Positions 4,835-55,687 of a stretch of 64,000 nucleotides of DNA are shown here, one piece after another (position 1 is the stretch's first letter; the number at the start of each line of letters is the position of its first letter). The notes under the pieces were generated by a model. It was not told where the DNA came from. It did no database searches and saw only the letters and a list, made by a program, of their open reading frames with translations. A program made the position numbers and the translations under genes. Location: the NCBI GenBank assembly GCA_024635455.1, contig JAGXIU010000002.1, forward strand, positions 236,309 to 300,308, in the 5' to 3' direction. Source of the stretch: Candidatus Saccharimonadota bacterium. Its GTDB lineage: Bacteria > Patescibacteriota > Saccharimonadia > Saccharimonadales > SLHW01.

Positions 4835-5314
4835 ATGGAAGCGTACGTAATACTCGGCTTTTTGTTTGGCTTTCCACTACTGATTGGTGGGCTATTTCGT
4901 GTGAACACTTCGCATCTATTCGTAAGCATATTAGCTGCTGAGATATTAGAACGTTATTTTGCAGATGAAGCTATCTTAGTGCTGACGCCTTTTATCTCAA
5001 GTGATATTGCATTAGGCTACGTTGGTTTTGCGATGCTTATTTTGCCAGTAGTATTAACAGGCATATTTCTGCACGGTAGTTTGAGTAGGGCAAAAACGTT
5101 ACTACATTTCGTGCCGTTTATATTATCAGGCATTGTGTTTTCTGCCTTTGCAGCACCCATATTACCAGAGGCGATTAAGCTAGAAATTTCCAGCATTCAG
5201 GTTGGCGAAATATTATTAGATTCTGCGCAGTTTATCGTTGGTGTAACCGTTCTACTCCAGTTATTTACTCTGTGGTTTTTAACTAAATCAAAAAAAGAAG
5301 GCAAGAGAAAGTGA
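4835..5314 (+). CDS. Hypothetical multi-pass membrane protein
   Basis: 159 aa with 4-5 hydrophobic segments. No motif recognised. Confidence 0.5.
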   Translation: MEAYVILGFLFGFPLLIGGLFRVNTSHLFVSILAAEILERYFADEAILVLTPFISSDIALGYVGFAMLILPVVLTGIFLHGSLSRAKTLLHFVPFILSGIVFSAFAAPILPEAIKLEISSIQVGEILLDSAQFIVGVTVLLQLFTLWFLTKSKKEGKRK

Positions 5315-5457
5315 TATAACAGATAGACGCGGTTGACTTTTCTCTGAAATTATCGATAATGTGAGGGGTTATTTGACAATTTTTTATGGTTTTCCAGGCC
5401 TGTGTGCTCGGATGATATTCGAGGCAGTAAAGTATATCGTCGAAAGCATAGGCCTGG

Positions 5458-5534
5458 GGGTCCATAGCTCAGCTGGTTAGAGCACCTGCCTTTTAAGCAG
5501 GGTGTCGTGGGTTCGAGCCCCACTGGACCCTCCA
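5458..5534 (+). tRNA. tRNA-Lys (anticodon UUU), CCA encoded
   Basis: Cloverleaf read by hand: GGGTCCA TA GCTC AGCTGGTTA GAGC A CCTGC CTTTTAA GCAGG GTGTC GTGGG TTCGAGC CCCAC TGGACCC T CCA. Confidence 0.95.
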
Positions 5535-5574
5535 AAGAAAAAACAGTCACACTGCGTGACTGTTTTTTCTTTGG
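5535..5574 (+). terminator. Intrinsic terminator whose stem begins with the tRNA CCA
   Basis: CCAAAGAAAAAACAGTCAC ACTGC GTGACTGTTTTTTCTTTGG. Confidence 0.8.
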
Positions 5575-5575
5575 A

Positions 5576-5827
5576 CTGATCTAATGGCTCGAACCCACGA
5601 CAGAGATTCGCCGATAAGGCGAAGATGTAGGTCGTGTGTTCGTGGAGCGACGCAGCGAGAAAATAAGCGCGTAGCATTTATTTCGAGCAAGGAAGTGGAT
5701 ATAACAAGCCCGTCACAAGCGGGCGCGTGCTGACCCACTGGCAATTTTGTAAGCGGCCAACTCTTGCGAACTTGTTTGCAAAGATGTTGCGACGGGGTCG
5801 CGGAGCGTGACCGAGCGCCACTGGACC
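5576..5827 (+). repeat. T-arm-mimic structured module, copy Lys(UUU)-1 (longest copy)
   Basis: GGCTCGAACCCACGACA (5586-5602) is the reverse complement of 17 nt of the adjacent tRNA T-arm. It pairs with GTCGTGTGTTCG (5631-5642) around the inner hairpin TTCGCC GATAA GGCGAA. TGGAGCGA and a CGCAG..CGAG box follow. Homologous to 52275-52401, 32461-32605 (minus) and 43696-43823 (minus). Confidence 0.6.
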
Positions 5828-5844
5828 CTCCAATAAAAATGCTT
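5828..5844 (+). repeat. Direct repeat of the tRNA-Lys(UUU) 3' end (displaced att-like fragment)
   Basis: CCACTGGACCCTCCAA is identical to 5519-5534 plus the next base. It is followed by the hairpin CCAATAAAAAT...ATTTTTATTGG. Confidence 0.9.
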
Positions 5845-5955
5845 CATATTGTATGTGGTATTTTTATTGGAGAGAACCAAGGAGTAAACTTAATTTTAGA
5901 AAGTAGCCACGTTTTTGTGAAGCTATTATCGATACGAGCCGCTAATCGCCAGAAG

Positions 5956-6666
5956 TTATGTTTTGTATATTTCTTCTATTTCAATTGACTCAATAACGTG
6001 AAGCAACTCCTTGTAGTCGGCCGAGTCTTTGAATGACTCAAGAAAACCTTTGCCCGTATCGCCCCAATAGTCATTATTTATATCGAATTCAGTGTATGCA
6101 CCCAATTCAGCGATTAAGACATTTGAGTTATCGAGCACGATACCGTTTTTAAAATCATTGCTACCAACAGTAACATCGGGGTCATTACTTAGGTAAAAGG
6201 CGGAAAAACGAGAAGATGATGTCGTATCTTCCTGCATTGCGAACACTACCTTCGCATCTGGATAGTGAATGTTGTTAATCGGTATAATATCAGACACGGA
6301 ACATGTCCAAGCCTCACCCGTATCCTCATTGCTGCCAGCACACATTGGTTGCTCAAAATCTGGCTGCGTTGCTCGCATGAACCGTAGCACAAGAGCATTC
6401 TGATCATGAAAGCCGGTAACCGTAATACTGTTCGTGGAACCATAGTTCGCTAGCGCAAGAGACGCGGGAAAATAAAAACTAAAGTAATTATTGCTATATT
6501 TTGTAATCTGATCTTCTGAGTTAGTGCTATTCTCGAGAGCAGTGTTTTCGGTGACTGTCTTAGTGTCTTCAGCTGTGTAAACTCTGTATCCCGCAAAACT
6601 TACAACAACGACTATGATGACCGCGAGAATGAGTAAATAAGAGAATCCTTGATTATTTAGACGCAT
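5956..6666 (-). CDS. Hypothetical membrane-anchored protein
   Basis: 236 aa with an N-terminal TM segment (FSYLLILAVIIVVVVSFAGY). No motif recognised. It lies between two tRNA-Lys 3' remnants. Confidence 0.55.
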   Translation of the reverse strand: MRLNNQGFSYLLILAVIIVVVVSFAGYRVYTAEDTKTVTENTALENSTNSEDQITKYSNNYFSFYFPASLALANYGSTNSITVTGFHDQNALVLRFMRATQPDFEQPMCAGSNEDTGEAWTCSVSDIIPINNIHYPDAKVVFAMQEDTTSSSRFSAFYLSNDPDVTVGSNDFKNGIVLDNSNVLIAELGAYTEFDINNDYWGDTGKGFLESFKDSADYKELLHVIESIEIEEIYKT

Positions 6667-6827
6667 GATGCTTCTTTCTTTTTGATTATATTGATCTTAG
6701 AACAGAGTGTTTGGGCTGATAAGGTGGTAAACCACATAGAGCCTCCTAAGCGTTAAGTATAGTATTAATGATACAACTCAACAAGAAATGCTTCGGCTCA
6801 GCTGTAAAGTAAGTTGTCATAATTTTG

Positions 6828-6948
6828 TGGCTCAAACTCACGACACGAGCTACCAAAGGTGGTGTCCGGGTTATGCCTGAAGCTAAAATCAAGGCACAAG
6901 TCACGCCACTCGTAGTTTTAGCGAAGGACGATTACTTCACTGGACCCT
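6828..6948 (+). repeat. Decayed T-arm-mimic module plus second tRNA-Lys(UUU) 3' remnant
   Basis: TGGCTCAAACTCACGACAC (6828-6846) pairs with GGTGTCCGGGTT (6861-6872). CACTGGACCCT (6938-6948) matches the tRNA 3' end. Confidence 0.45.
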
Positions 6949-6966
6949 TCATACCCCTAATGCCTG

Positions 6967-7002
6967 AAACAGAGGTAAATCGCCTCTGTTTTTTGGTACA
7001 CT
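6967..7002 (+). promoter_or_regulatory. Cassette junction: terminator hairpin plus extended -10 box 6 nt before the ATG
   Basis: AAACAGAGG TAAATCG CCTCTGTTTTTT, then TGGTACACT, 6 nt, ATG at 7009. The same junction sequence is seen at 53408-53466, 54187-54245 and 55597-55653. Confidence 0.5.
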
Positions 7003-7008
7003 AATACT

Positions 7009-7632
7009 ATGTCAACGATAAAGAACTATATTGCGAACTCAACTGGTGAATTAGATAACCTAGTTGAAATGATCGATAGATCATTAAGTAGGGTAATCCC
7101 AGTTGCCCAGAAGGAATTGGAAGCTGATAAGATAGACATCATTTTTATTTCAGCAGCTGGTTTAGCTATTCCAGAATACGGTATGGGGGGTAATTCTCCT
7201 GGGCCAAACCATCTGTATGTTTCGTTTGACCCCAACTCGGATAAAATCACAATAGACAAATTAGACGAAACGCTATTTCACGAAATTCACCATTGTATGA
7301 GATGGCGCGATCCTGGCTACGGAGAAACTTTAGGTGAAGCGATGATTTCAGAAGGCATAGCTTGCTTATACGAAGAAGAGCACAGTGGTAAAGCACCAAT
7401 CTATGCCAAAGTCGGTCTAAAGGCAGACCAATTGGTTAAAGCAAAAAAACTGATTAAAACCAAAACATATAATCATAGTGAGTGGTTTTTTGGCGCTAAA
7501 AACATAGATAGATGGTTTGGATATAGCTTAGGTTATAAAATCTGTAAAGAACACTCACTCATAACAGGCAAGAAAGCTTCGGAACTAGTACATACTTCAG
7601 CACAAGAAATATTACGTACTAGTTATAAATAA
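7009..7632 (+). CDS. Putative zinc metalloprotease-like protein (HExxH; DUF2268-like)
   Basis: The HEIHH motif in LFHEIHHCMRW. No SD; appears leaderless. Confidence 0.45.
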   Translation: MSTIKNYIANSTGELDNLVEMIDRSLSRVIPVAQKELEADKIDIIFISAAGLAIPEYGMGGNSPGPNHLYVSFDPNSDKITIDKLDETLFHEIHHCMRWRDPGYGETLGEAMISEGIACLYEEEHSGKAPIYAKVGLKADQLVKAKKLIKTKTYNHSEWFFGAKNIDRWFGYSLGYKICKEHSLITGKKASELVHTSAQEILRTSYK

Positions 7633-7755
7633 CCCCTTGTTAGTACGTAATTTTGTTACGTCAACGAGATACATACATGCTTTAAAGATAAGAAGCCATA
7701 CAAGGTGACTTCTTTTCTTTGAGGAGGGGCGTGCGTGCCGCTAATCAAACTTTTG

Positions 7756-9282
7756 TTATTTTGCTTCGATACCGAGTAGTTTCTCGAGACGTTTTTCTAT
7801 GGAGCCAGGGTGGCGACCGAATTCCTTCGATAACTTACCTATGTCACTATCTATCTGGAATAGTTTTATAAGCGTTTCATCGTCCTTAGTTCGCCATGGT
7901 CGGTAAGCGTTGGGATATTCTTGACGCATCTTTTCTAGTTTTTGCGCCCAGTTACCGCTGTTTTTTTGTGTTTTTGCGGGACGTTTTTTTCGTTCTTCCT
8001 CGGCTTTTTGCCAGTCATCTATAATCTTTTGATGGTTGCGATGAGTCACCTCACTGGTAGAGCGTAGGGTGACGTCTATCTCGCGAGCATACGGGCTGGT
8101 TCGTAGTGCCATATTGTTTATGCCATCTAGCGTCAGGTTATCAAGGCTGCGGACGCGGGAGAGCGCTACGTAACCCATACCTTCGACAAATGCCTTAGAG
8201 AGGTCTATTTGTGCAGCATCAAGTGTCATACCTTGACTCTTGTGGACTGTTATCGCCCAGGCAAGACGGATGGGTAGTTGTGTTAGGCCAGCTCGTTTTT
8301 TATCACCATCCCTTAGTTCCCAGGCTTCTGGCCGAATAGTGATGGTTTTGCCGTTTAATAGCCGTACTATTGGATAATCAGTATCTGGCTCGAAATCGAC
8401 AACGGTGCCTAAGCTCCCGTTTACGTATTTTTTTTCTGGGTTGTTTTTGATACACATGACACTCGCGCCAAGTTTAAGTTGCAGGGTCTCTGATGCAAGG
8501 CACGAGCGCTTGAGCTGTTCAACATAACGAGCACTACCAGTAGTGCTCATCTCGTAGCTGTGTATGTCACCGTCGAGCTCCTGGAGTTTTTTCTGATTAA
8601 TTGCGTCAACATCCACATTGGTGGTTAAGAGCCGTGTAACGCTATGAGAATCCTTTACGGAAGCTTCTCGAGCACGGAGTCGGTCAAGCTGTGAGCGCAT
8701 CAGGCTTCCTTCACGGATGCCGTTTAATATATCGGTATAGTATTGATCATCAGCCTGTCGGTATTGTTCGTGCAAATAACAAACTTCAAAAGAACCTTCT
8801 TGCCAAGATTGCGACTCAGTAACAAAGCCTCCATAGCGACTATCGCCACGGTTAATCGGTGGTAACTGGAAAAAATCACCACAAAGAATGACCTGTACGC
8901 CACCAAACGGTTCCTCTGAGTCTCGAGCTTCACGCATGGCCTGGTTAATAAGATCGAGTCGGAAGTCATGCAGCATACTTATCTCATCGATTATGAGTAC
9001 GTCGGCTTTATTGATGAGTTCCCGTCGTTGCTTACTTAGGTTTTTTCCAAATGAGTGCGGCAATTCATCTTGAATGCCAATACCTGCCCAGGAGTGGATG
9101 GTGCTGCCGTTTAGGTGAGTTGCCGCTAGCCCGGTAGTGGCGGTAATCGCTATGTGTTTACCGTCAGCTTTCCCGCGCTGGATGAACTGATTTAATACAT
9201 GCGTTTTGCCGGTGCCAGCAGCACCGGTGAGCAGGGTAGATACACCACTTTCAAGAATGGCAAGCGCGTCTCGTTGAATCAT
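7756..9282 (-). CDS. Pif1/RecD-like superfamily 1 DNA helicase with C-terminal HTH-like tail
   Basis: Walker A GAAGTGKTH, Walker B DVLIIDEISM, ILCGDFFQLPPI, and C-terminal motifs ITVHKSQG and GYVALSR. Confidence 0.8.
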   Translation of the reverse strand: MIQRDALAILESGVSTLLTGAAGTGKTHVLNQFIQRGKADGKHIAITATTGLAATHLNGSTIHSWAGIGIQDELPHSFGKNLSKQRRELINKADVLIIDEISMLHDFRLDLINQAMREARDSEEPFGGVQVILCGDFFQLPPINRGDSRYGGFVTESQSWQEGSFEVCYLHEQYRQADDQYYTDILNGIREGSLMRSQLDRLRAREASVKDSHSVTRLLTTNVDVDAINQKKLQELDGDIHSYEMSTTGSARYVEQLKRSCLASETLQLKLGASVMCIKNNPEKKYVNGSLGTVVDFEPDTDYPIVRLLNGKTITIRPEAWELRDGDKKRAGLTQLPIRLAWAITVHKSQGMTLDAAQIDLSKAFVEGMGYVALSRVRSLDNLTLDGINNMALRTSPYAREIDVTLRSTSEVTHRNHQKIIDDWQKAEEERKKRPAKTQKNSGNWAQKLEKMRQEYPNAYRPWRTKDDETLIKLFQIDSDIGKLSKEFGRHPGSIEKRLEKLLGIEAK

Positions 9283-9330
9283 TACCTCTAGTATAGCAGT
9301 CGATAGCGACGGCTGAGCGGTCTTATATGA

Positions 9331-11163
9331 TTACTTCTTCTTTTTATTACGCTTATTGCTATCAAGCTCGCGTTTCCGCAGTCGAAGACTTTCTGGCGTA
9401 ACTTCTAGCAGTTCATCGTCTTCGATAAAATCAATTGCTTGTTCTAGGCTCAAAATAGTTGGTGGGGTCAACTGTACAACGCCGTCACTTGAAGAGCTGC
9501 GCATGTTGGTTAGGTGCTTTGCCTTACAGACATTCATATCCATATCTTCTTGGCGTTTATTTAATCCTACAATTTGTCCAGCGTAGACTTTTTCACCTGC
9601 GTCTATAAAGACGGTGCCGCGCTCGCCAGCCATCTCGAGTGCATACGGTGTAGTTGTGCCGGTTTCGTGCGCAACCAGAACGCCGTTGCGCAGCTGATTC
9701 AGCGCACTACCAAGTGGTTGATAGCCGTCCATCAGGCTACTCATGATAACCGTTCCCTTTGTATTGGTTAGTAGCGTATTTCGAAGACCAATCAACGCTC
9801 GAGTTGGAATGCTGTAGGTTAGCTTGGTGGTTCCTTTGTTGTTCGATGACTGTGACTGTAGCTGCGCTCGACGTGCACCAAGCTCCATTTGAATAGTGCC
9901 AACGTGCTCTTCAGGTACCTCAATAAATAATTCTTCAACTGGTTCTTGTTCAACACCGTCTATCTCGCGAGTTATCACGTGTGGCCGTCCTACCTCGAAC
10001 TCATATCCTTCTCGGCGCATGGTTTCGATTAGAACACTTAGGTGCAGTTCACCACGACCGGCTACCACAAAGCCAATGCCGTCGTCTTCAACCTGTAGTC
10101 CGATATTGGTCTCGAGCTCCTTGTTCAGCCGGTCACTTAGTTGTCGGCTCGTCGAGAATTTACCCTCAGTGCCCTTAAACGGGGACGTATTCGGACCAAG
10201 GTATATCTTCAAGGTTGGTGCTTCAACCTCCATGACTGGCAAAGCATCAGGATGTTCGCTGTCAGCAATTGTCTCGCCAATTTGCGCTTCAGCAACACCA
10301 GTCAAAGCTACGATGTCGCCTGCGACACCACCTACTACTTCAAAGCGGTTCACGCCGTGACTCATGTAGACGCCATCCACCTTTGCTTTCGTGATACTGC
10401 CGTCTTTTTTGCACAGTGATACGGCATCATTTGGCTTGATTGCACCACGGGAAATGCGTCCGATTGCATACTTGCCCTTGAAACTATCCCAAGCCAATGC
10501 AGTTACTAACATTTGAAATGGTTGGTCTGGCGCCACATTCGGCGCTGGTACATGTTGGGTTATTGCTTCAAATATTACGTCTAAGTTTGCTTCTTCGTCA
10601 CTGTTTTCTGGCGGGTTCTGCCAAGCTTTTCCGTCACGAGCAATCGCATAATACAACGGGTACTGTAGCTGGTCCTCATCGACAGCTAGTTCTAGGAACA
10701 AGTTAGCCAGTTCATCTTCGACTTCTGCGATGCGGTTACCTGGTTTGTCTATCTTATTAATGATGACGATTGGCTTGAGGTGGTTTAGTAGTGCTTTGGC
10801 CAGTACGAATTTAGTTTGTGGCATTGGTCCTTCTTGCGCATCAACGACGAGTAGGCAACCATCAGCCATATTAAGTGTGCGCTCAACTTCACCAGAGAAG
10901 TCAGCATGCCCTGGAGTGTCGATGATATTTATCCGGTAGTCATCGTGTTGGACGGCTGTAACTTTCGCCGTTATGGTAATGCCTCGCTCTCGCTCCTGAT
11001 CGTTACTGTCCATAATAAGTTCTTGCTCCATCTCAGCTTGGTTATCGCGAAATGTCTGAGACTGCTTAAGTAGACCGTCTACCAGTGTCGTTTTGCCGTG
11101 GTCAACGTGCGCAATAATAGCAATATTACGAATTTTTTTGGCATCTTGGTTCTCTGAAATCAT
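9331..11163 (-). CDS. typA: Translational GTPase TypA/BipA
   Basis: [28 protein letters not shown]. Start chosen at the ATG preceded by AAGGA ([10 protein letters not shown]...). Confidence 0.92.
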
Positions 11164-11198
11164 TACGTGTCCTTGTAGGGGTATAACACCCCTGTTCA

Positions 11199-11231
11199 TG
11201 AAAAAAGCGCTTATACGATTGAAAAGCGCTT
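11199..11231 (-). terminator. Terminator-like hairpin inside the typA 5' leader (possible attenuator)
   Basis: Two copies of the palindrome AAGCGCTT (11205-11212 and 11224-11231) form an 8-bp stem. On the minus strand a T6 run follows. The hairpin lies between a TATAAT-like box (near 11255) and the typA start. Confidence 0.4.
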
Positions 11232-32442: not shown

Positions 32443-32460
32443 TGGCCGGGGTGAGAGGAC
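32443..32460 (-). repeat. Direct repeat of the tRNA-Pro 3' end (att-like)
   Basis: TGGCCGGGGTGAGAGGAC versus TGGTCGGGGTGAGAGGAC at 37093-37110 (17 of 18 identical). Confidence 0.85.
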
Positions 32461-32605
32461 AATTTAGGCCGGGCACTATTCAGTGCTCGGCTTCATCTCC
32501 GCTCAAACTTTCTCGATGCTAGCATCTGCGAGAGTTTTCGCTCCACCGAACCGTCCGACCTCTGCAACACTTCGTGTTGCGGTCGGAGGTTCAAGCCACT
32601 CTCAA
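32461..32605 (-). repeat. T-arm-mimic structured module, copy Pro(UGG)
   Basis: Read on the minus strand: TGGCTTGAACCTCCGACC (antisense of the tRNA-Pro T-arm), GCAACAC GAAG GTGTTGC, GGTCGGACGGTTCGG, TGGAGCGA, TCTCGCAGATGCTAGCATCGAGAAAGT. The last box is near-identical to 52352-52378. Confidence 0.6.
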
Positions 32606-33113
32606 GCAATGAAAAAGCCGCCCCTGACAGGACGGCTCTTTCATTGGTCGAGTAGGAGCGATTACGCTTGAACAGGTTGAGCCACTACTGTTATCGCTTA
32701 AAGATTACTGGTGTAGAAGCTCAAATATGCGTGAAATGTCTAGCTTACTCAAACATCCACGAGTTGCATCAACAGTAGCAGAATATGAGCTTTAACAGGG
32801 GTAGATTAGCACTTTCCTATTGATAAACGTGATGCGACTTGAACAAGATAACAATACTAATTGGACATTAAGTCCATTTCATGTCGTACATTGTATGTTG
32901 TACGAACCGTGCTAACAGGGGTAGTGGTATATTTTTAGCAACAAAATGGCTTGTCAAGTGCTTGTGTTATTTTCGCCACCCCTGTTTTTTACATATTATA
33001 CAATGATGGTTTCGATTGCAGTGTCAGCTCCATTGTACTAGTCAATTATTCTTACTCGCTGTAATATTTTGATAGCATTTAGCGTTACTATACAATTAAA
33101 GTAAAGATTTCCT

Positions 33114-33584
33114 ATGAATAACGATAAACCACACTTTTCAATTGGCGATATAGATAAAGAATCAATTATTAAACGTGCAGAGAGAAAAGTCTCCCGAACA
33201 AACACTGATCCTTATTATCAAAATGTACAGGTTGAAGTAATGATTGAACGTGAGATGGAGCAAGTCTTTAAGAAGGATTTTATGGGTTCAACAACCGACT
33301 TGTTGCGTTTAGGTGATTCTGGTGCTGCGATTGGCTATTTAGTTTTTGTCTTCATTCTGCTGATTACATCTGACAACGGCTTGAGCTTGGTGCAGTTCTT
33401 TTTCTTAGTAGTAGTTACCATTATGTTGTTAATCGCAGTACATGGCACAATGAAGGAGCGGATCGAGTCTGCTTTTAAATCAGGAGCACATAGTGATTGG
33501 CATCTATATGAGCCTGAATACCGAGATGCGTTATGGGAAATAAGGCAACGCAAAGAAAATACTAGACCTGAACGAAACCACTAA
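33114..33584 (+). CDS. Hypothetical membrane protein (island cargo)
   Basis: 156 aa with two central TM segments. Confidence 0.5.
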   Translation: MNNDKPHFSIGDIDKESIIKRAERKVSRTNTDPYYQNVQVEVMIEREMEQVFKKDFMGSTTDLLRLGDSGAAIGYLVFVFILLITSDNGLSLVQFFFLVVVTIMLLIAVHGTMKERIESAFKSGAHSDWHLYEPEYRDALWEIRQRKENTRPERNH

Positions 33585-33661
33585 GCTACAAGCATAGAGA
33601 TAGTTATTCCATATAAAAAGAGACGACATGTAGCCGTCTCTTTAGTTATTGTTGCTGTTTT

Positions 33662-34231
33662 TTATTTAACCTGAACGATAGCACGGTCCGCATTAAATCC
33701 ATTCGGTTTCCAGATAACATACTGGTGTCCTTCTTCGACTGGTACTTCAAAAACAATCTGTCCTGATGCTTTTCCGCCAGCAACCATGTCTCCTGAGCTT
33801 AATGAGTTATCCACGGTAGCAAATGCTCCATCAAGAACTTGTCCTTCCGCAGTCTGAATACGAAAATCGAACACATTGTATGGCTTAGTTTCGTTACTGG
33901 TGTTCTCTAGTGCAACATCAGCAATAACATAGGTCTTTCCACTTCCAGCTTGTTCAAACTCACTTATAGTAGTCTTATAAACTACGTTAGAAAGAGTCAT
34001 CTTAACTCCGTCAACTGTAGCCGCTTCGCTTGGCAATACTTCTACGTCTTTGGGTTGCTTGTCTGCACGGTCGTCAAACCTGTATGTCTTCTCTCCACTA
34101 GCAGTGTTATTTTCGCCACCACTATTGTTTCCTGAATTATCACTACCACCACCTGCTGCACTTGCAATTACTGCAATCACAATAAAAGCCAATATGACTG
34201 TCAAAATTTTATGTTTCTTAAACCAACTCAC
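33662..34231 (-). CDS. DUF4352-like secreted/anchored protein (island cargo)
   Basis: N-terminal TM, G/S/N-rich linker, then YVIADVALENTSNE...FDFRIQ...ASGQIVFEVP, typical of DUF4352. Confidence 0.6.
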   Translation of the reverse strand: MSWFKKHKILTVILAFIVIAVIASAAGGGSDNSGNNSGGENNTASGEKTYRFDDRADKQPKDVEVLPSEAATVDGVKMTLSNVVYKTTISEFEQAGSGKTYVIADVALENTSNETKPYNVFDFRIQTAEGQVLDGAFATVDNSLSSGDMVAGGKASGQIVFEVPVEEGHQYVIWKPNGFNADRAIVQVK

Positions 34232-34361
34232 TATAAATCTCCTTATTAGTATTAACTATAATATACATTTAATTTCCTTACCTGTAAATATACCCTAAAT
34301 GATGCAAATAATAAACAGTTGGTTTATGTAACTATCTGTTTATTATTTCTACGCTTAGTAC

Positions 34362-34748
34362 ATGACCGAACAGAAACTAATGAAAGCCTTTGGTAAACGT
34401 GTTGCTGAGGTCCGAAAAAACAAAGGCATTACTCAACAACAACTAGCACATGATATTGGTATGAGTGTTGTCGCAATCGCATACATTGAAACTGGTAAAC
34501 GTTGGGCAAGGCTAGGAACACTCAATAAAATAGCCAAACGCCTAAAAGTCGATATTAGCGATTTATTTACAGGCATATACATAACTCAACTTTTGTCCAA
34601 AAACCTCGCTAAACGCCTCTCTGTACGTCACAGAGGGCTTAATTGTCTTTCATTAAATGTATCTGTAATGTGCAGAGCAAGACCCTACGATTTTTTTATC
34701 CAATTTTTTACTTATCAACGCCATTTATTAGCTTGTACAACATGCTGA
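34362..34748 (+). CDS. XRE-family HTH regulator with an atypical long C-terminal tail
   Basis: FGKRVAEVRKNKGITQQQLAHDIGMSVVAIAYIETGKR...LNKIAKRLKVDISDLF. The last ~55 aa are low quality and Cys/Leu-rich. Confidence 0.6.
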   Translation: MTEQKLMKAFGKRVAEVRKNKGITQQQLAHDIGMSVVAIAYIETGKRWARLGTLNKIAKRLKVDISDLFTGIYITQLLSKNLAKRLSVRHRGLNCLSLNVSVMCRARPYDFFIQFFTYQRHLLACTTC

Positions 34749-34796
34749 TTTCTTACATCAAAATAATTAAAAACCTAACGAAAACATGGGTGTTTT

Positions 34797-35030
34797 CTAG
34801 GTAAGTGTAAAGAAACTGAACACTACCTTATTTTGGTTTTCTTTTGCCGCAAGCATCTTCTCCCTAAACACTTCATTATTACGCATATAGTAGAAGAAAG
34901 TGGTACGACTTATGCCTGTCCAGCGACAAGCCTCGCTTATTGTGCTGTTGTGTTGTATTGCATCTTGAAGCCTTAGCATGGTTGTATAGGTGACTTTGGG
35001 CTTTCGTCCTATAGCTTTTCTTATTTCCAT
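34797..35030 (-). CDS. Small HTH protein (resolvase-HTH / terminase-small-subunit-like); possible directionality factor
   Basis: 77 aa containing ISEACRWTGISRTTFFYYM. Divergent from the recombinase promoter. Confidence 0.45.
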   Translation of the reverse strand: MEIRKAIGRKPKVTYTTMLRLQDAIQHNSTISEACRWTGISRTTFFYYMRNNEVFREKMLAAKENQNKVVFSFFTLT

Positions 35031-35098
35031 TTTACTCCTTTGTTTTCTGCGTTACCCCTGTTCTAATTATACAGAAGTAGCATTACCATAAAATATAC

Positions 35099-35127
35099 TT
35101 GACAATGCTTATGGTAAAGAGTATAAT
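35099..35127 (+). promoter_or_regulatory. Consensus sigma-70 type promoter facing the recombinase gene
   Basis: TTGACA (35099-35104), a 17-nt spacer, TATAAT (35122-35127). The 8-bp outer stem AGACCCCA/TGGGGTCT (35137-35184) follows directly. Confidence 0.6.
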
Positions 35128-35512
35128 TAGTAGTATAGACCCCACCAAGAAATCCTTTTCAGGAAGGTTTTTGACATGGGGTCTTAACTTATTTTAAGAC
35201 TTCATAAAAACCTTAGCGAACTAATAACACCTATCGCACTGAGAAAACTCATGGGGGTGAAGAACTTAAAACACTTCACTGGTCAAAGAAAGAACCAGTG
35301 TGGACTACGATGCAAAACTCGATGTTACATCAAATCAAAATACACAAAACAAAGATAGTGACAGCTTATTTAAGTTGTTGGAGTTGCTTAAAAAGGCAGA
35401 TATTAAAAACAATCTAGCCGACTTAAATGAAACAACTATGAGCGACAATAACGGTGGTCGTATAGAGCTTTAATCCTCGCACTCGTACTTTGACTAAGCT
35501 ACAATATATAGT

Positions 35513-37114
35513 ATGTATGAAGACGAAGAAGAACCACAAATAGATATAACAACGCTTCGGTATGTATTGTATGCACGAAAATCTACTGATGATCCAAAGC
35601 GTCAGGTGCGTTCTATTGATGACCAGATTGATGAATGTGAAGTCTTAGCAAGACGTAACGGAATGCGTATTGTCAAAAAGATTACAGAGGAAAAATCAGC
35701 AAGAAAAGCTGGAAATCGACCTAAGTTCGACCAGATGATTCAAGACATTGAGGCAGGTAAATATGATGGGGTTGTTGCTTGGAACCCTGATAGGCTCGCT
35801 CGGAATATGACAGAGGGCAGTCGTATACTGAGCCTTATTGATGCAGGTCGTATTGTTGACCTAAAGTTCGCAACACACCACTTTGTTAACGACTCAAGTG
35901 GACAGATGCTCCTCGGCATATCTTTCGTCATGGCTGATTACTACTCAAGAAGACTTTCAGAAAACGTCAATAGAGGCGTTAAGAAAGGCTTGAAAGAGGG
36001 TAAGTCATCAGGAACTCCAAAGCACGGCTATATTAGACATGAAGACGGTATTTATCGACCAGATGATGAAGATGGCTGCAAGAACTTTGAACTAATTTGT
36101 GATGCATGGAAGATGCGTAAAAAAGGTGATTCACTCAAAACGATTGCAAATTACATGAACAAAAATGGTTACGCACGTATTTATAAAGAAAACGCTGAAA
36201 AAGCAGGTCAAAAAGTAAATATGAGCGACAAGATACTAAGTAATACTGTATTTCCAGACCCCTTTTATTATGGAATCCTAATTCAGACAGATAAGCCTGT
36301 AGACCTTAGAGAGATTGATGAATACAATTTTAAGCCAGCTACCGATGAGGACACATACAATTACATACAGCAGATGACAGGTCGCTCTACTAAAAACACC
36401 AAACGTAGTGTATTCAAACCTTTAGTGGAAATGGTCTATTGTGCGTACTGCAATTCAAAGATGTACCCACAAACACCACAGTCCTCAAACAAGACAAGAA
36501 AATTATCATATAGGTGTGACAATGCACACTGTCAGCGTAAGAATAAAGAGCTTAAACTTAGCCAGTCAGTTAGAGGAATAGTCATATTTAAGTTCATGTA
36601 CGAAATGCTTGAGAATATAGAAGTCAATGAGAGCGATTACGAGAAGTTACGCAATAAGCTAATAGTAAGCAACCAAGCCAATGCACACAAACAGGCTATA
36701 GAGATTCACTCGCTTCAAGGTTCACTTAAGAGTATCGAGAAAGACATCAAGGATCGTAGCTTGAAGATTATTACATTAGACAAGAATAGTCCTATCTACA
36801 GAACTAATGAAACTCATATCAACGAACAGGGTGTCAGAGCTAACGAACTACGTAATGAAATTGATAAACTTACAGAACAGCGAACAAATCCAGACGAAGA
36901 CATTATGAGCTTTGAGGAGTTCTTGAACGTAATAAAAAACGCCAGCAAACACCTTAAAGTTGCTGACGTTGTACTAAAAGACCACATTGCTCGTTTAATC
37001 TACTTGAACGTACATGTAGATAGCGAAAATGTGGTCTCCTACCAGATGAAGGAGCCATTTAAGACTTACTTCAAATCGTATAAAATCTTTACTGGTCGGG
37101 GTGAGAGGACTTGA
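35513..37114 (+). CDS. Large serine recombinase (integrase)
   Basis: Resolvase domain YARKSTDD...SIDDQ...DRLAR, recombinase domain, zinc ribbon CAYCNSKM...YRCDNAHCQ and a long coiled coil. The stop TGA at 37112-37114 lies inside the tRNA-Pro T-loop. Confidence 0.9.
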   Translation: MYEDEEEPQIDITTLRYVLYARKSTDDPKRQVRSIDDQIDECEVLARRNGMRIVKKITEEKSARKAGNRPKFDQMIQDIEAGKYDGVVAWNPDRLARNMTEGSRILSLIDAGRIVDLKFATHHFVNDSSGQMLLGISFVMADYYSRRLSENVNRGVKKGLKEGKSSGTPKHGYIRHEDGIYRPDDEDGCKNFELICDAWKMRKKGDSLKTIANYMNKNGYARIYKENAEKAGQKVNMSDKILSNTVFPDPFYYGILIQTDKPVDLREIDEYNFKPATDEDTYNYIQQMTGRSTKNTKRSVFKPLVEMVYCAYCNSKMYPQTPQSSNKTRKLSYRCDNAHCQRKNKELKLSQSVRGIVIFKFMYEMLENIEVNESDYEKLRNKLIVSNQANAHKQAIEIHSLQGSLKSIEKDIKDRSLKIITLDKNSPIYRTNETHINEQGVRANELRNEIDKLTEQRTNPDEDIMSFEEFLNVIKNASKHLKVADVVLKDHIARLIYLNVHVDSENVVSYQMKEPFKTYFKSYKIFTGRGERT

Positions 37115-43289: not shown

Positions 43290-43376
43290 ATATTCTTAAA
43301 GATTTGTACGTTGGTCTTACACTGTATCTCATTGGCTAGAGCGCCTAAAGCGCCATTACTATTCCTGACCTATCGG

Positions 43377-43399
43377 TCGCCAACTGAGATACATCCGCC
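43377..43399 (-). repeat. Duplicated 5' fragment of tRNA-His (pseudo-tRNA piece)
   Basis: The minus strand reads AATATGGCGGATGTATCTCAGTTGGCGA, against AATATGGCGGGTGTAGCTCAGTTGGTTA at the true gene. An inverted partner GTATCTCATTGG lies at 43324-43335. Confidence 0.6.
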
Positions 43400-43678
43400 A
43401 TATTGTTATCAGAAAACAGGGGTAATTATATCGTGTTTTATGCTCTGCCGCAACAGCCCTATAGAAGTCATAAAATCACTAGAGAACGTACGCGCAGGAT
43501 ATGTTTCTGAAGTGCAAATATGTCGATAGCTTGGACTGGATGACATTCTTAATCTACTAATGATGCTCAAAGCAAGTTTCTGTGCGTGATGCTCAATCCC
43601 CAAACTTGCCTGAGGGGTTGAACCTCGCCCACGCGAGCACCCATAGAAAAAGTCGGCCACAAGTGCCGACTTTTTCTA

Positions 43679-50468: not shown

Positions 50469-50702
50469 TTACTTGCTTGAAGCGTTGTGTTTCATATTCA
50501 TATAAATACCGCCTGCCTCTAGCTCGTCTAGCATTTGGCTGAGCCTTTTGTTTATAGTTTGCTCTTGTTTTGCGCGCTCAATCCAGCTTATATAATCATT
50601 TCTCTGGTATTCAGGCCTACCATTGTAAGCTTCTACTAGTTTTCTTTCCTGGAGGGCATTTTTGATAAAATCAGGCATTGGGTGAACTTTTCTTTGCAAC
50701 AT
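50469..50702 (-). CDS. YdeI/OmpD-associated (OmdA) family protein
   Basis: PDFIKNAL...YNGRPEYQRNDYISWIERAKQEQTINKRLSQMLDELEAG. Confidence 0.6.
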   Translation of the reverse strand: MLQRKVHPMPDFIKNALQERKLVEAYNGRPEYQRNDYISWIERAKQEQTINKRLSQMLDELEAGGIYMNMKHNASSK

Positions 50703-50727
50703 AACTAAATATTAACAAAAAAAAGAT

Positions 50728-50774
50728 CCTGCGACCACTGTCTTCCCTCCGGCAAATCGAATCTCGCTCGATAG
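50728..50774 (-). repeat. Truncated T-arm-mimic module fragment downstream of tRNA-Arg(UCG)
   Basis: The minus strand reads GAGCGAGATTCGATTTGCCGGAGGGAAGACAGTGGTCGCAGG. It is related to the Arg(UCU) copy and preceded by the CCA-hairpin CCAAATAAAGAGTCGGCC...GCCGGCTTTTTTATTGGG. Confidence 0.4.
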
Positions 50775-50811
50775 CCCAATAAAAAAGCCGGCACAAGGCC
50801 GACTCTTTATT

Positions 50812-50888
50812 TGGTGCACCGGGTAGGATTCGAACCTACGACACCTGGTTCCGAAGACCAGTGCTCTAATCCACTGAGCTACCGGTGC
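50812..50888 (-). tRNA. tRNA-Arg (anticodon UCG), CCA encoded
   Basis: GCACCGG TA GCTC AGTGGATTA GAGC A CTGGT CTTCGGA ACCAG GTGTC GTAGG TTCGAAT CCTAC CCGGTGC A CCA. Confidence 0.92.
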
Positions 50889-52161: not shown

Positions 52162-52238
52162 GGGCCAGTAGCTCAGCTGGTTAGAGCACCTGCCTCTTAA
52201 GCAGGGTGTCGAGGGTTCGAGTCCCTCCTGGCCCTCCA
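52162..52238 (+). tRNA. tRNA-Lys (anticodon CUU), CCA encoded
   Basis: GGGCCAG TA GCTC AGCTGGTTA GAGC A CCTGC CTCTTAA GCAGG GTGTC GAGGG TTCGAGT CCCTC CTGGCCC T CCA. Confidence 0.95.
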
Positions 52239-52274
52239 ATTCATGAAGCCACCTTGTGTGGCTTTTTGAATTGG

Positions 52275-52401
52275 ATAGACGAGCTCCGAACCTGAGACAC
52301 AGATTCGCCACCTGGCGAAGATGTAAGTCGAGTGGTTCGTTCGTAAGGATCTCTCGCAGAAGCTTGCTTCGAGAAAGTGACGCAACGTGCCGCGGGCAGC
52401 C
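52275..52401 (+). repeat. T-arm-mimic structured module, copy Lys(CUU)-1
   Basis: CTCCGAACCTGAGACAC, TTCGCC ACCT GGCGAA, GTCGAGTGGTTCG, then TCTCGCAGAAGCTTGCTTCGAGAAAGT (52352-52378). Confidence 0.6.
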
Positions 52402-52419
52402 CCCTCCTGGCCCTCCAAT
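52402..52419 (+). repeat. Direct repeat 1 of the tRNA-Lys(CUU) 3' end
   Basis: CCCTCCTGGCCCTCCAAT is identical to 52223-52240. The hairpin AAAACGCCCACC...GGTGGGCGTTTT follows. Confidence 0.9.
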
Positions 52420-52462
52420 ATAAAACGCCCACCTTTTCGTTACCGGTGGGCGTTTTATATTG

Positions 52463-52599
52463 ATTGTCTTGAATGGCTCGACTCCTCGAAACGCCAAAAA
52501 GGTGTCGTGGGTGAAGATTTCCAGTGGCAATCCGCAAGAGAATCTTCACCTGACAGCAGTGCTGTCACGGCGGAAGTTCTGGGCCCGCAGAATGTGGGC
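52463..52599 (+). repeat. T-arm-mimic structured module, copy Lys(CUU)-2 (more diverged)
   Basis: AATGGCTCGACTCCTCGAAACGCC ... GGTGTCGTGGGTGAAG, plus further hairpins (GAAGATT..AATCTTC, CTGACAGCA..TGCTGTCA). Confidence 0.5.
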
Positions 52600-52621
52600 G
52601 AGTCCCTCCTGGCCCTCCAAT
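52600..52621 (+). repeat. Direct repeat 2 of the tRNA-Lys(CUU) 3' end
   Basis: GAGTCCCTCCTGGCCCTCCAAT is identical to 52219-52240 (22 nt). Confidence 0.9.
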
Positions 52622-52656
52622 ATGTTTAATCGTTCTCGTCCTGCTATACTTCACTT

Positions 52657-53388
52657 ATGAAACCCAGAAAATTCGCTGTTTTCGACCTTGACGGCACTCT
52701 ATTCCGCTCTTCATTGTATTTTGAGATTGTTCATGAGCTCTCCAGGAGCGGGAAGCTGGACGCTATCACAAGACAAGCCATAGATAGCGCATATTCCGAC
52801 TGGAAAATTAGAAAGTCAGATGAAGTTTTTTGGGAATATGCCAATTCGCTCATGTCTGCATACCAAGAACAACTGCAAGACCTATCTCCTGAAGATTACG
52901 AGACAGCTGTAAGGCAAGTATTTGAGTCTCAAAAGGAATACGTATATGTATACCCAAAACAAATGTTGGCTAGACTAAAACGAGAGGGTTATTTTTTGCT
53001 GGCAATATCTGGCTCGCAGGTAGAGATAATAAGATTATTCTGTGAATATCATGGATTTGACGACTGGCTTGGCTCGGTGCATGAGCGTGATAATTACGGC
53101 CTCTTTACTGGCAATTCTACAATAACTCATATAGATAAGTCCGACGCTCTCAATGAGCTTGTGTCAAAAAATAATCTAAGCCTTGAGGGTAGTATCGGCA
53201 TAGGCGATACACAGGGCGATACAAAAATACTCAATATGGTCGAAAAGCCGATAGCCTTTAACCCAAATAAACAGCTTTACGAACACGCTAAAAATAATGG
53301 CTGGGAATTAGTTTTCGAAAGAAAGAATGTAGTGATACAGCTGACCAAAATCAATGAAAAGTACGTACTTAATGAAAAGAACCTTTAG
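52657..53388 (+). CDS. HAD-IB family hydrolase (phosphoserine-phosphatase-like)
   Basis: FAVFDLDGTLF, ISGS, GDTQGD. TGCTATACT lies 6 nt before the ATG. Confidence 0.7.
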   Translation: MKPRKFAVFDLDGTLFRSSLYFEIVHELSRSGKLDAITRQAIDSAYSDWKIRKSDEVFWEYANSLMSAYQEQLQDLSPEDYETAVRQVFESQKEYVYVYPKQMLARLKREGYFLLAISGSQVEIIRLFCEYHGFDDWLGSVHERDNYGLFTGNSTITHIDKSDALNELVSKNNLSLEGSIGIGDTQGDTKILNMVEKPIAFNPNKQLYEHAKNNGWELVFERKNVVIQLTKINEKYVLNEKNL

Positions 53389-53407
53389 TCGCGCTGGCAT
53401 GCGCTAT

Positions 53408-53466
53408 AGCCCTCCAATCTTGTTATGTTTGAAACAGAGTTGACCCGCCTCTGTTTTTGCTATAGT
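53408..53466 (+). promoter_or_regulatory. Cassette junction (tRNA remnant, terminator hairpin, extended -10)
   Basis: AGCCCTCCAAT CTTGTTATGTTTG AAACAGAG TTGACCCG CCTCTGTTTT TGCTATAGT, with the ATG 7 nt later. Confidence 0.55.
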
Positions 53467-53473
53467 TAAGTCT

Positions 53474-54142
53474 ATGGACGAATTAAATAAAGCAACTACA
53501 ACTTTTTTGCAGAAGCTAACTAAGGATGAAAGCGTTCTAGGGGTTGCTCTATTTGGTTCGTGGGCCAGAGGTAATCAAAGGGAAGACAGTGATGTTGATT
53601 TGCTCGTAATTGTAAAACAGGGTTACAAGCGATCAATTGAATACGTAGAGAGTCAAGCGTTTGAAATAATATACACCTCCGTAGAGGGTGCAAAAAAATA
53701 CTACAAAACAGATTTAGATGCGACACATAGGTTTTGGGCACATGCAAAAATTTTAATGGACCGAGACAATTCAATACAACCTTTGAAAGAATTTGCCATT
53801 GATCTCACAAAAAATGGAAAAGCGGTTCTTTCTGAAGATGATTTGAAGTATTTTGAGTTTGATGCTCTAGACCAAATTAGGTTTGCTACCGCGGCACATT
53901 CAAATGGCGATATTGCGACAGCAAACTTAGTTTTACATATTAAGGTGGCTGCACTAGCAGAAATATACTTCGATACAATTCAAGAATGGCGACCTGCCCC
54001 AAAACAGATTTTGGCTGAAATACAAAATAGAAATGAAAAACTGGGTAATCTTCTAGCTAATTTTTATTCTGACGAGATTCATTTTAGTAACCAAGCTGAG
54101 CTGACAGAAAAGATTATTGGCGTGATATTCCAGAAAGACTAA
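53474..54142 (+). CDS. Nucleotidyltransferase-domain protein (KNTase/MNT-like, N-terminal NTase plus helical C-domain)
   Basis: GVALFGSWARGNQREDSDVDLLVIV. Confidence 0.7.
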   Translation: MDELNKATTTFLQKLTKDESVLGVALFGSWARGNQREDSDVDLLVIVKQGYKRSIEYVESQAFEIIYTSVEGAKKYYKTDLDATHRFWAHAKILMDRDNSIQPLKEFAIDLTKNGKAVLSEDDLKYFEFDALDQIRFATAAHSNGDIATANLVLHIKVAALAEIYFDTIQEWRPAPKQILAEIQNRNEKLGNLLANFYSDEIHFSNQAELTEKIIGVIFQKD

Positions 54143-54186
54143 TTCACCTCAGCATACAAAAAAATAGTTACAAAAAGAAACACAGT

Positions 54187-54245
54187 AGCCCTCCAATACG
54201 CTTATGTTTAAAACAGAGGTAATTCGCCTCTGTTTTTGCTATAAT
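54187..54245 (+). promoter_or_regulatory. Cassette junction (tRNA remnant, terminator hairpin, extended -10)
   Basis: AGCCCTCCAAT ACGCTTATGTTTA AAACAGAGG TAATTCG CCTCTGTTTT TGCTATAAT, with the ATG 6 nt later. Confidence 0.55.
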
Positions 54246-54251
54246 AATTCT

Positions 54252-54614
54252 ATGAAACAAAGCATTATCTTTCAAAGACTAGAGGGTTTTACTCTGCTTG
54301 TAGTTAGTATTTTTGTATACGTGAATCTGAATTTGAATATCTTTGTATTTATTCTAGCTTTGCTGCTTGTAGATATTTTTATGGCTGGTTATCTCATAAA
54401 CAATAAAGTCGGCGCATACATTTACAATGTAGGACATTCCATCTCTATCCCTTTAGTTATAGGGGCTGCAGGATATTACACAGGTTCAGGTATGACGATA
54501 GCAGTGAGCTTAATCTGGTTTGCGCACATTGGAATGGATAGAGCATTTGGGTATGGCCTGAAACTTGAATCTGGATTCAAAAACACTCATCTCGGCCACA
54601 TCGGTAAAAAATAG
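54252..54614 (+). CDS. DUF4260-like small membrane protein
   Basis: Start at MKQSIIFQRLEG. C-terminal HIGMDRAFGYGLK...FKNTHLG pattern. The ORF-track start at 54204 runs through the junction hairpin. Confidence 0.55.
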   Translation: MKQSIIFQRLEGFTLLVVSIFVYVNLNLNIFVFILALLLVDIFMAGYLINNKVGAYIYNVGHSISIPLVIGAAGYYTGSGMTIAVSLIWFAHIGMDRAFGYGLKLESGFKNTHLGHIGKK

Positions 54615-54633
54615 TTGTAACCAGTAGTACGGT

Positions 54634-54661
54634 AGCCCTCCAAATCGCAGTTTGCTATGAT
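54634..54661 (+). promoter_or_regulatory. Cassette junction, hairpin-deleted variant
   Basis: AGCCCTCCAAAT CGCAGTT TGCTATGAT, with the ATG 6 nt later. Confidence 0.45.
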
Positions 54662-54667
54662 GAGATT

Positions 54668-55561: not shown

Positions 55562-55596
55562 AGTTTTGGGCAGCAGTTGCAACAAGAAGTACGGCG

Positions 55597-55653
55597 GTCA
55601 TCCAATACGAGTATGGTTAAAACAGAGGTGATTTGCTCTGTTTTTGCTATACT
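55597..55653 (+). promoter_or_regulatory. Cassette junction, decayed remnant
   Basis: GGTCATCCAAT ACGAGTATGGTTA AAACAGAGG TGATTTG CTCTGTTTT TGCTATACT. Confidence 0.45.
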
Positions 55654-55687
55654 CAGTTCATAGAAATGGAGCCAAAAATGTGAGGTC

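Follow-up and report, generated by a model that had tools for sequence, protein, structure and literature searches.

Genomic islands that integrate at tRNA genes, Islander-type islands and tycheposons among them, involve recombinases of the tyrosine or large serine type (Hackl et al., bioRxiv 10.1101/2020.12.28.424599). Here, we analyzed a stretch of 64,000 nucleotides (the window) from contig JAGXIU010000002.1 of a Candidatus Saccharimonadota bacterium and, within it, the array of small units that lies 3' of the tRNA-Lys(UUU) gene, between positions 5535 and 7632. The array consists of noncoding modules, in which a structured scaffold is flanked by pieces of tRNA sequence (arms), and of single genes, and its layout recalls integrons and tycheposons without their hallmark genes. 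Saccharibacteria have tiny genomes (the chromosomes of relatives span 0.67 to 0.90 Mb), and how they gain genes is poorly understood; our results point to tRNA 3' ends as landing sites at which ready-to-express single genes and small structured elements accumulate. The repeats and the anatomy at the locus are largely real and far beyond chance, and the architecture, with arms matched to each tRNA, extends much more broadly than the window alone shows. The module family is widespread, located beside many different tRNA genes and apparently undescribed; neither the arrays nor the modules were found in the literature that we searched.

The tRNA-Lys(UUU) array

We compared the locus with 80 loci retrieved by a search with the RimK protein (66 to 97% identity), nearly all of them from Candidatus Saccharibacteria/Saccharimonadales. 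The gene order RimK-DUF192-(hypothetical)-tRNA-Lys(UUU)-gap-YebC is kept across these relatives, and the gap between the tRNA and YebC measures 78 nt in L074, where it is effectively empty, 257 nt in L049, where it holds one module, and up to 5.9 kb elsewhere. When the open reading frames (ORFs) of these intervals were clustered over the 80 genomes, 173 of 246 had no relative in the interval of any other genome, and the only recurrent large families, ComEC and one hypothetical protein, are both part of the conserved frame. A gap of such variable length, with almost no common cargo, shows that 5535-7632 is inserted DNA. The first-pass annotation, made from the sequence of the window, had proposed to look in relatives for an empty tRNA-Lys(UUU) flank, and that of L074 is effectively empty; rather than being ancestral, syntenic and invariant, with no similar units elsewhere, the region is variable and its units occur at many tRNAs. 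Modules beside tRNA-Lys(UUU) reach covariance-model significance in 14 of about 60 relatives, with one family (type A) in some and another (type B) in others, and one type A copy in the relatives adjoins a tRNA-Met. Many of the relatives' contigs end at or just past tRNA-Lys(UUU), and one contig of the same strain ends inside the T arm, as is expected because this DNA is repeated and variable.

Three module insertions are visible at tRNA-Lys(UUU) in the window, two of them truncated and fused and one decayed, together with two cargo genes. The array is anchored by an intact tRNA with an encoded CCA (5458..5534, plus strand), which ARAGORN and Rfam (71.5 bits) both place where the first reading had it. 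As also described then, a terminator-like hairpin of 43 nt follows (hairpin 1, 5532..5574, plus strand), the stem of which runs from the CCA of the tRNA to a TGG; such CCA...TGG hairpins are likewise found 3' of tRNAs and of module tails in relatives and in metagenomes.

The next 250 nt had been taken for a single module, the longest copy of all. We find a half tail at 5734-5741 that separates a type A-like 5' part from a type B 3' part, which argues that the stretch is a composite of two truncated units of different families, fused by a deletion that would have taken away the remainder of the first tail along with a hairpin and the second unit's 5' half. Unit 1 (5575..5741, plus strand) comprises an antisense T-arm strand, GGCTCGAACCCACGACA (5586-5602), which is the reverse complement of the T-stem 5' strand and T loop of the tRNA, an apical hairpin (about 5603-5630), a sense T-arm piece, GTCGTGTGTTCG (5631-5642), a scaffold that includes a hairpin (5708-5724) and the truncated half tail, CCCACTGG (5734-5741). 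It resembles the first module, m1, of the tRNA-Lys(CUU) array (80% over 55 nt by blastn; z = 11 by local alignment) and three other type A variants (z of about 5.5 to 5.9), among them the tRNA-Pro module at 32455-32606 on the minus strand (z = 5.9) and that of L029 (z = 5.5), with which it shares a GGATATAAC-hairpin feature. Unit 1 fails as a canonical type A module, since the strict type A core covariance model (R2) does not detect it; it is a divergent variant, assigned to its family by pairwise similarity.

Unit 2 (5742..5833, plus strand), a type B module of which the 5' end is truncated and the 3' part is kept, was recognized with the type B covariance model (R1) and by alignment to 13 type B modules. 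The R1 match covers 5658-5833 (50.9 bits, E 1e-14), with a convincing alignment only in the 3' 75-90 nt. Homology indicates a helix GGTCGC/GTGACC at 5796-5812, and the hairpin GCGAC-GGG-GTCGC that had been drawn in the module is probably not the real pairing. The tail of unit 2 (5818-5833) equals the tRNA 3' end exactly, and 25 of 28 positions are identical over 5812-5839. This exact copy had been noticed earlier but placed about 10 nt too far downstream, at 5828-5844, so the module ends at 5833 and not at 5827. In the window, the 16-mer CCACTGGACCCTCCAA occurs exactly twice, at the tRNA end (5520-5535) and at 5818-5833, and the 11-mer CACTGGACCCT three times, the third at 6938-6948; over 100 shuffles, 0 and 0.01 occurrences are expected, respectively. 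Both displaced copies of the tRNA 3' end, the 16-nt one and the 11-nt one, are in direct orientation, and the latter is exactly the second remnant that had been annotated. Hairpin 2, CCAATAAAAAT...ATTTTTATTGG (5830..5870, plus strand), begins at the CCA of the displaced tail, in agreement with the earlier description.

Unit 3 (6822..6951, plus strand), the most decayed module, was delineated from its sequence and from the repeat statistics. It retains an antisense T-arm strand, GGCTCAAACTCACGACAC (6829-6846), a sense T-arm piece, GTGTCCGGGTT (within 6822..6951), and a tail remnant, CACTGGACCCTtCA (6938-6951). These pieces sustain the decayed module that had been proposed here at 6828-6937 (6822-6937 in our delineation), but its middle shows no significant similarity to any of 13 module sequences of both families (z at most 3.1); unit 3 appears to keep its arms around a middle that is either unrelated or eroded. 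It would represent the oldest insertion at the locus.

The two cargo genes had both been correctly read as ORFs. Cargo gene 1 (5956..6666, minus strand) was characterized by translation and domain scan. Its 236-amino-acid product has one membrane anchor, at the N terminus, and matches PsbP_2 weakly; the gene, inverted with respect to the array, is preceded by a TATAAT and a leader of its own, and none of the loci of the 80 relatives has a homolog in this interval. Cargo gene 2 (7009..7632, plus strand), annotated earlier as a leaderless HExxH protein gene, encodes a predicted Zn protease of 207 amino acids with a DUF2268 domain (Pfam E 2.4e-25) and an HEIHH motif, and is apparently leaderless; in L079, a DUF2268 homolog of 51% identity adjoins tRNA-Lys(UUU) in the opposite orientation. 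Cargo gene 2 is preceded by a cassette junction (6952..7008, plus strand), defined by alignment to other junctions, with a ATACCCCTAATG motif, a hairpin GAAACAGAGG-TAAATCG-CCTCTGTTTT (6966-6992, plus strand) and an extended -10-like box, TGGTACACT (6994-7002, plus strand), 6 nt before the ATG. The segment 6949-7008 aligns with four of the five cassette junctions compared in the tRNA-Lys(CUU) array, hairpin included, so that the two arrays do share this hairpin as had been proposed, and it also aligns with junctions in L072 and L069. Common to all are a short motif after CCA, a hairpin AAACAGAGG...CCTCTGTTT, a TGnTAnAnT box and an ATG 6-7 nt further on, and the junction is conserved across arrays and genomes.

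The tRNA-Lys(CUU) array (52162-55940) has two modules, of type A (52275-52420) and type B (52465-52620), followed by at least four single-gene cassettes that encode a HAD protein, a nucleotidyltransferase, a DUF4260 protein and one uncharacterized protein. Every cassette has AGCCCTCCA at its end, and the conserved hairpin and -10-like junction stand in front of most of them; the junction is also present before a fifth small ORF (55688-55936). An 8-mer, CGCTTATG, follows CCA in the cassette junctions of the window, and it is found reversed (CATAAGCA/G) at the same position in L029, L041, L057 and L076. Promoter and terminator scans of 5300-7700 gave site counts no higher than those in shuffles.

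Among the ORFs of the window, those of the core proteins DnaK/DnaJ, RimK, BipA and YebC flank the array. A PIF1-like helicase and BipA (7756-11199) are located between tRNA-Lys(UUU) and YebC only here, the neighbor of YebC in relatives being ComEC; this suggests a further rearrangement in this genome. Relative to RimK/YebC, the orientation of tRNA-Lys(UUU) is flipped in 17 of 42 scorable relatives, with the variable region always on the 3' side of the tRNA, which suggests recurrent inversions around the site. At the same tRNA, the related genomes L066 and L070 differ by an indel of the size of a scaffold: between shared CCC microhomology, one has and the other lacks the apical loop, the sense T-arm piece and the scaffold of type A.

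Module families and their tRNA genes

The modules form at least two families, types A and B, which have one layout in common. From 5' to 3', a hairpin is followed by an antisense T-arm strand, a variable apical loop, the sense T-stem 5' strand and the scaffold; then come the T-loop 3' part and/or the T-stem 3' strand, the acceptor 3' strand, the discriminator, CCA and the next hairpin. When the type A covariance model is applied to tRNAs, the tRNAs themselves align at both ends and the 53-nt scaffold is skipped, which indicates that a module corresponds to the 3' third of a tRNA with a scaffold placed in the T loop.

Compensatory base changes strongly support the folds of both families. Type B has six helices around a junction, with GNRA loops and one invariant G-U; in an alignment of 13 sequences, 93.9% of the cells are compatible with pairing, compared with 76% in shuffles and 32-42% with slid partners, and 31 of 48 pairs show compensatory changes. 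The core of type A consists of three stacked helices with a conserved GCA/GA internal loop (89.5% of cells paired versus 74% in shuffles; compensatory changes in 10 of 17 pairs). In type B, G-U exceeds A-C by 37 to 13, in an alignment that had been fitted to the model, an excess that designates the tRNA-sense strand as the one that folds. The antisense strand of type B is paired, in helices 1 and 2, and in several type A variants the fold recreates the whole tRNA 3' region, with the tail paired in some. Neither family matches any Rfam 15 family. At gathering thresholds, Rfam matches in the window are limited to the tRNAs and one c-di-GMP-II riboswitch, and for the regions 5400-7100 and 52230-52650 no credible family emerged up to E = 10, intron and ribozyme models included. 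The riboswitch (RF03169, 50.2 bits, 1900-1985) is located upstream of a gene for a CAP-domain secreted protein (2051-2794). With their strong covariation, and at least 120 metagenome loci found with a stringent type B motif, the two scaffold families constitute new structured-RNA candidates.

The window, which carries seven tRNA genes, has arm-matched modules after tRNA-Lys(UUU), tRNA-Lys(CUU) (two), tRNA-Arg(UCU) (two) and tRNA-Pro(UGG). For type B, the match between arms and tRNAs was quantified among the metagenome matches listed, on 72 copies located 90-170 nt 3' of a co-oriented tRNA, with mismatched tRNAs as controls (360 comparisons). In this set, the scaffold adjoins 22 anticodon classes, and the 20-nt tail differs by at most one base from the tRNA 3' end in 16 of these classes, which represent nine amino acids (Ala, His, Met, Lys, Gln, Leu, Ser, Val and Ile). 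The tail is perfect in 32/72 copies and has at most one mismatch in 38/72 (controls, 4/360). The sense T-arm piece has at most one mismatch in 37/72 (controls, 20/360) and the antisense strand at most two in 19/72 (controls, 12/360), so both track the tRNA more loosely than the tail does. Pure target-site duplication is ruled out, since the sense T-arm piece follows the tRNA as well, even though it falls outside any duplication. In modules located at a noncognate tRNA, the sense piece remains complementary to the tail of the same module, which argues that the arms are a coherent set carried by the element.

The proposal that the same architecture recurs at different tRNAs with matching arms therefore stands, for tRNA-Lys(UUU), tRNA-Lys(CUU), tRNA-Arg(UCU) and tRNA-Pro(UGG) in the window, for tRNA-Met in relatives and for the metagenome loci. 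That it reflects "retargeting rather than duplication" stands in part: the arms do match each tRNA, but retargeting would be a step beyond this match, and tandem duplication also occurs. Moreover, the second tRNA-Lys(CUU) module, m2, carries a sense T-arm piece of the tRNA-Lys(UUU) type, a single-base difference that makes exchange between loci possible.

Two further fragments of the window resemble parts of this architecture. Upstream of the intact tRNA-His, on the minus strand at about 43320-43400, the first 20 nt of tRNA-His are copied (18/20) and are followed by unrelated sequence, the end of which, TGAGATACA, can pair back; this may be another partial-tRNA fusion. At 50700-50812, also on the minus strand, tRNA-Arg(UCG) and a CCA...TGG hairpin are followed by a fragment, GAGCGAGATTCGATTTGCC, that looks like the start of an antisense T arm, and by nothing further.

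Possible routes of insertion

From the observed anatomy, folds, patchy occurrence and match between arms and tRNAs, we infer an insertion mechanism, an order of events and an enzyme, and our current working hypothesis, which we hold with about as much confidence as doubt, is that nonautonomous units are mobilized in trans and inserted serially at the tRNA 3' end. Small units with no recombinase of their own would enter the 3' end of tRNA-Lys(UUU) time after time; every newcomer would rebuild the tRNA 3' end beside the gene and push the older copy and the earlier insertions downstream. One kind of unit would be the noncoding module, with its scaffold where a partial sense copy of the tRNA would have its T loop, an antisense T-arm strand that precedes this copy and pairs across the split, and a CCA...TGG hairpin. 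The other would be the single-gene cassette, which would bring its motif, hairpin, extended -10-like box and leaderless ATG and end in a short tRNA 3' copy. Insertion would most simply proceed by a single crossover, within the tail identity, of a small intermediate, circular or tandem, with the tRNA gene, which would explain the direct repeats, the intact tRNA and the existence of two mirror-image arrangements. Indeed, if the circle consists of the scaffold between tRNA-like arms, a crossover in the right arm would generate one arrangement and a crossover in the left arm its mirror image. Specificity for the tRNA would be provided by the arms, through sequence identity.

The mirror arrangement represents 21 of the 121 metagenome motif matches listed. 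In these, the tRNA 5' part (positions 1-53) runs into the scaffold, the truncated tail and a TATAAT box overlap, and 20-40 nt further on there is an intact tRNA. In L271 (8411-8600), L247, L310/L206 and L272, a diverged 5' part of a tRNA continues at the T loop into a type B scaffold; in L310, the differences between the two 5' parts lie mostly in the acceptor and D arms, and from the anticodon arm on the two are almost the same. Modules are also found far within arrays, where short repeats of the tRNA 3' end precede them and identical hairpins sometimes flank them. L253 has two identical 175-nt units (hairpin, module and tail) in tandem, and the units also multiply by plain tandem duplication.

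The catalyst would act in trans, and a large serine recombinase is the leading candidate. Domain scans, which covered 50 ORFs of the window (about 25 further ORFs lie outside the scan), found no recombinase within 5535-7632, and the sole recombinase among the ORFs scanned is a large serine recombinase of 533 amino acids (35513-37114) at tRNA-Pro(UGG), the last 22 nt of its gene overlapping the 3' end of the tRNA. It belongs to a low-GC island of about 4.5 kb that extends from tRNA-Pro to its module (32644-37114) and also contains an HTH gene (34362-34748) and a DUF4352 gene (33662-34231); at the far end of the island stand a hairpin and a type A module matched to tRNA-Pro (32455-32606, minus strand; tail, 17/18). 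Among 142 ORFs within 5 kb downstream of the type B modules listed, 4 matched Resolvase and 3 Recombinase; these, at 3-4 loci, are the only recombinases that recur, and in L310/L206 and L272 a recombinase gene overlaps the intact tRNA directly after the scaffold. The link between recombinase and modules could be coincidental because both target tRNA ends.

Several observations weigh against serial insertion in trans. No recombinase is present in or next to the tRNA-Lys(UUU) array, and most modules have none within 5 kb; ORF clustering of the intervals of the 80 genomes likewise revealed no recurrent recombinase among the cargo, ComEC and the hypothetical protein being the only recurrent families. 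A serine recombinase of fixed specificity is not expected to serve 16 or more tRNA ends, and a protein-only mechanism explains neither the conserved single-strand fold nor the fact that two unrelated scaffolds have one arm layout. Reading of the sequences in front of the modules did not reveal a consistent -10-like motif, so that expression of the modules would depend on read-through past hairpin 1. An exact look-up with three flanking and cargo proteins retrieved only same-strain contigs that are 100% identical to the window, end inside the tRNA and are uninformative as to polymorphism, and the data at hand contained no circular form, no empty-site polymorphism within a population and no transcript. 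Finally, IMG/VR viral contigs yielded no true module (two type B motifs gave one spurious match and zero matches, and none of the 111 matches to a loose type A motif passed the type A HMM), which leaves the units with no known vehicle between cells; a scan of viral contigs with the serine recombinase of the window found no relatives of the enzyme either.

Since a single enzyme of fixed specificity poorly explains 16 or more targets, we keep as an alternative, albeit a rather unlikely one, that insertion is guided by base pairing. The scaffold would then be the handle of a guide RNA or of a folded single-stranded DNA (ssDNA), the arms of which pair with both strands of the tRNA gene and thereby program an enzyme encoded elsewhere. 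Doubtful to the same degree is the extension of this idea, in which a change of arms would retarget the element to another tRNA and the modules would be miniature, guide-only derivatives left at their own targets. One scaffold occurs at 16 or more tRNA classes with matched arms, two unrelated scaffolds have one arm layout, the fold is selected on the tRNA-sense single strand and noncognate copies keep their arms mutually consistent, all of which a guide would account for. The type B tail, moreover, is mostly predicted to be unpaired and its 16-20 nt correspond to a known guide length, but the tail is paired too in some type A variants, and its identity with the target is equally explained as the copy of an ordinary attachment site. 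In the loops of IS110 bridge RNAs, adjoining halves of the target are matched by one antisense and one sense segment. The arms of the modules are likewise antisense and sense to adjoining target halves, except that the antisense strand pairs inside the module instead of being exposed in a loop. The analysis found no autonomous relative of full length, nor any IS110, TnpB, IscB or Cas-type gene in the window ORFs scanned, and none is recurrent near the at least 120 metagenome modules.

If the arms do direct insertion through base pairing, this would be a new natural way of programming DNA insertion. We can suggest only tentatively that Saccharibacteria, and probably other Patescibacteria, possess a programmable system for insertion at tRNA genes, with exchangeable arms on a scaffold RNA or on a folded ssDNA acquired by transformation. 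It is with similar reserve that we envisage a scaffold recruiting an enzyme encoded elsewhere, so that modules and promoter-bearing cassettes are inserted just after CCA; such a system would amount to an integron-like platform for gene capture without an integron integrase. Even if they have no guiding role, the modules account for the breaks of this phylum's metagenome-assembled genomes at tRNA genes and indicate where strain-specific genes lie.

Slightly less probable still, in our view, is that the module is an RNA that benefits or exploits the host on tRNA transcription units, by using tRNA promoters and processing or by serving as a decoy attachment site that spares single-copy tRNA genes. 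Equally improbable is the mode of spread that goes with it, through duplication, homologous recombination and natural transformation with no dedicated recombinase. Modules are always co-oriented with the tRNA at a fixed distance, or fused to a tRNA 5' part behind its promoter, and their tail ends in CCA and a hairpin as a tRNA does. The serine recombinase island between tRNA-Pro and its module shows that such islands insert at these ends. ComEC is next to the locus in relatives and type IV pilus genes are present in the window, and the tandem duplicates and identical flanking hairpins would fit unequal crossing-over; on the other hand, for exchange that depends on RecA, arms of 10-20 nt are short. 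At orthologous tRNAs the modules are distributed patchily (in about a quarter of relatives), with families that differ between genomes, and displaced copies lose scaffold score along with their tails, like neutral remnants, both of which also weigh against this reading.

That the scaffold is an intron, self-splicing or processed, in the T loop of a tRNA copy or of a split tRNA, the modules being leftovers of homing or recombination, is very improbable and largely refuted. In favor of this reading, the scaffold sits exactly at the T-loop position of a tRNA-like sequence, the 21 mirror cases among the matches listed have a tRNA 5' part (positions 1-53) that runs into it and tRNA-gene introns are frequent in Patescibacteria (PMC13011429). 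Against it, every full-length tRNA with a scaffold had an intact copy next to it among the loci inspected; the acceptor 3' strand is missing from the 5'-fused copies, as positions 1-45 are from the usual modules, and the two regions scanned with Rfam (5400-7100 and 52230-52650) match no family up to E = 10, intron and ribozyme models included.

Comparison with described systems

Of the systems compared, MITEs (miniature inverted-repeat transposable elements) and other small nonautonomous elements resemble the modules in being small and noncoding, in having many copies per genome and in their presumed mobilization in trans. Unlike MITEs, the modules have no terminal inverted repeats and no short target duplication of fixed length, and they are strictly site specific beside tRNAs. 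IS110 bridge RNAs and the omega RNAs of IS200/IS605 elements combine, as the modules do, a conserved scaffold with short variable segments that match the insertion site; a 3' segment of 16-20 nt equals the flank, and one segment is antisense and one sense. In contrast to those systems, there is no DEDD transposase or TnpB nearby, no Rfam match and no transposon end, and the arms are partly paired internally. The DEDD/serine transposase of IS110 is absent from the locus and is not recurrent in the 142 ORFs beside the metagenome modules listed, and the type B consensus is a multihelix junction with a paired antisense strand rather than an RNA with two guide loops. Neither TnpB nor IscB is found nearby, among the window ORFs scanned or the ORFs beside metagenome modules, and only the 3' tail is guide-like.

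With integrons, the array shares the organization of single-gene cassettes at one anchor, the newest nearest to it, the structured boundary elements, conserved in fold and variable in sequence, and the diversity of the cargo. It departs from them in that the anchor is a tRNA 3' end and not attI, that the gene cassettes are without a structured module and that each has its own hairpin and TGnTAnAnT box before a leaderless ATG instead of a common promoter. No match of the intI/Phage_integrase type was obtained in the 50 window ORFs scanned, and the cassettes end only in a short tRNA 3' copy, which is not an attC site (attC models were not run). Sites that recombine as a folded single strand, such as the bottom strand of integron attC and the attP(+) of CTX-phi, offer another parallel, since in the modules, too, antisense and sense copies refold the target duplex within one strand; however, the GNRA loops, the invariant G-U and the terminator-like hairpins of the modules point to RNA, and no link to Xer or IntI was seen.

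Like the tRNA-integrating islands and tycheposons, the array shows an intact tRNA followed by partial copies in direct repeat, older insertions pushed inward, hypervariable cargo and degenerate remnants. The locus has the displaced tRNA copies and the variable content of such islands and has no internal integrase; its units are 130-250 nt or one gene long and carry neither an integrase nor replication genes of their own. What sets the modules apart from these islands is a conserved single-strand fold, an antisense T-arm strand and the use of one scaffold for many tRNAs, and both type B and the type A core display the compensated helices by which structured RNAs are generally recognized.

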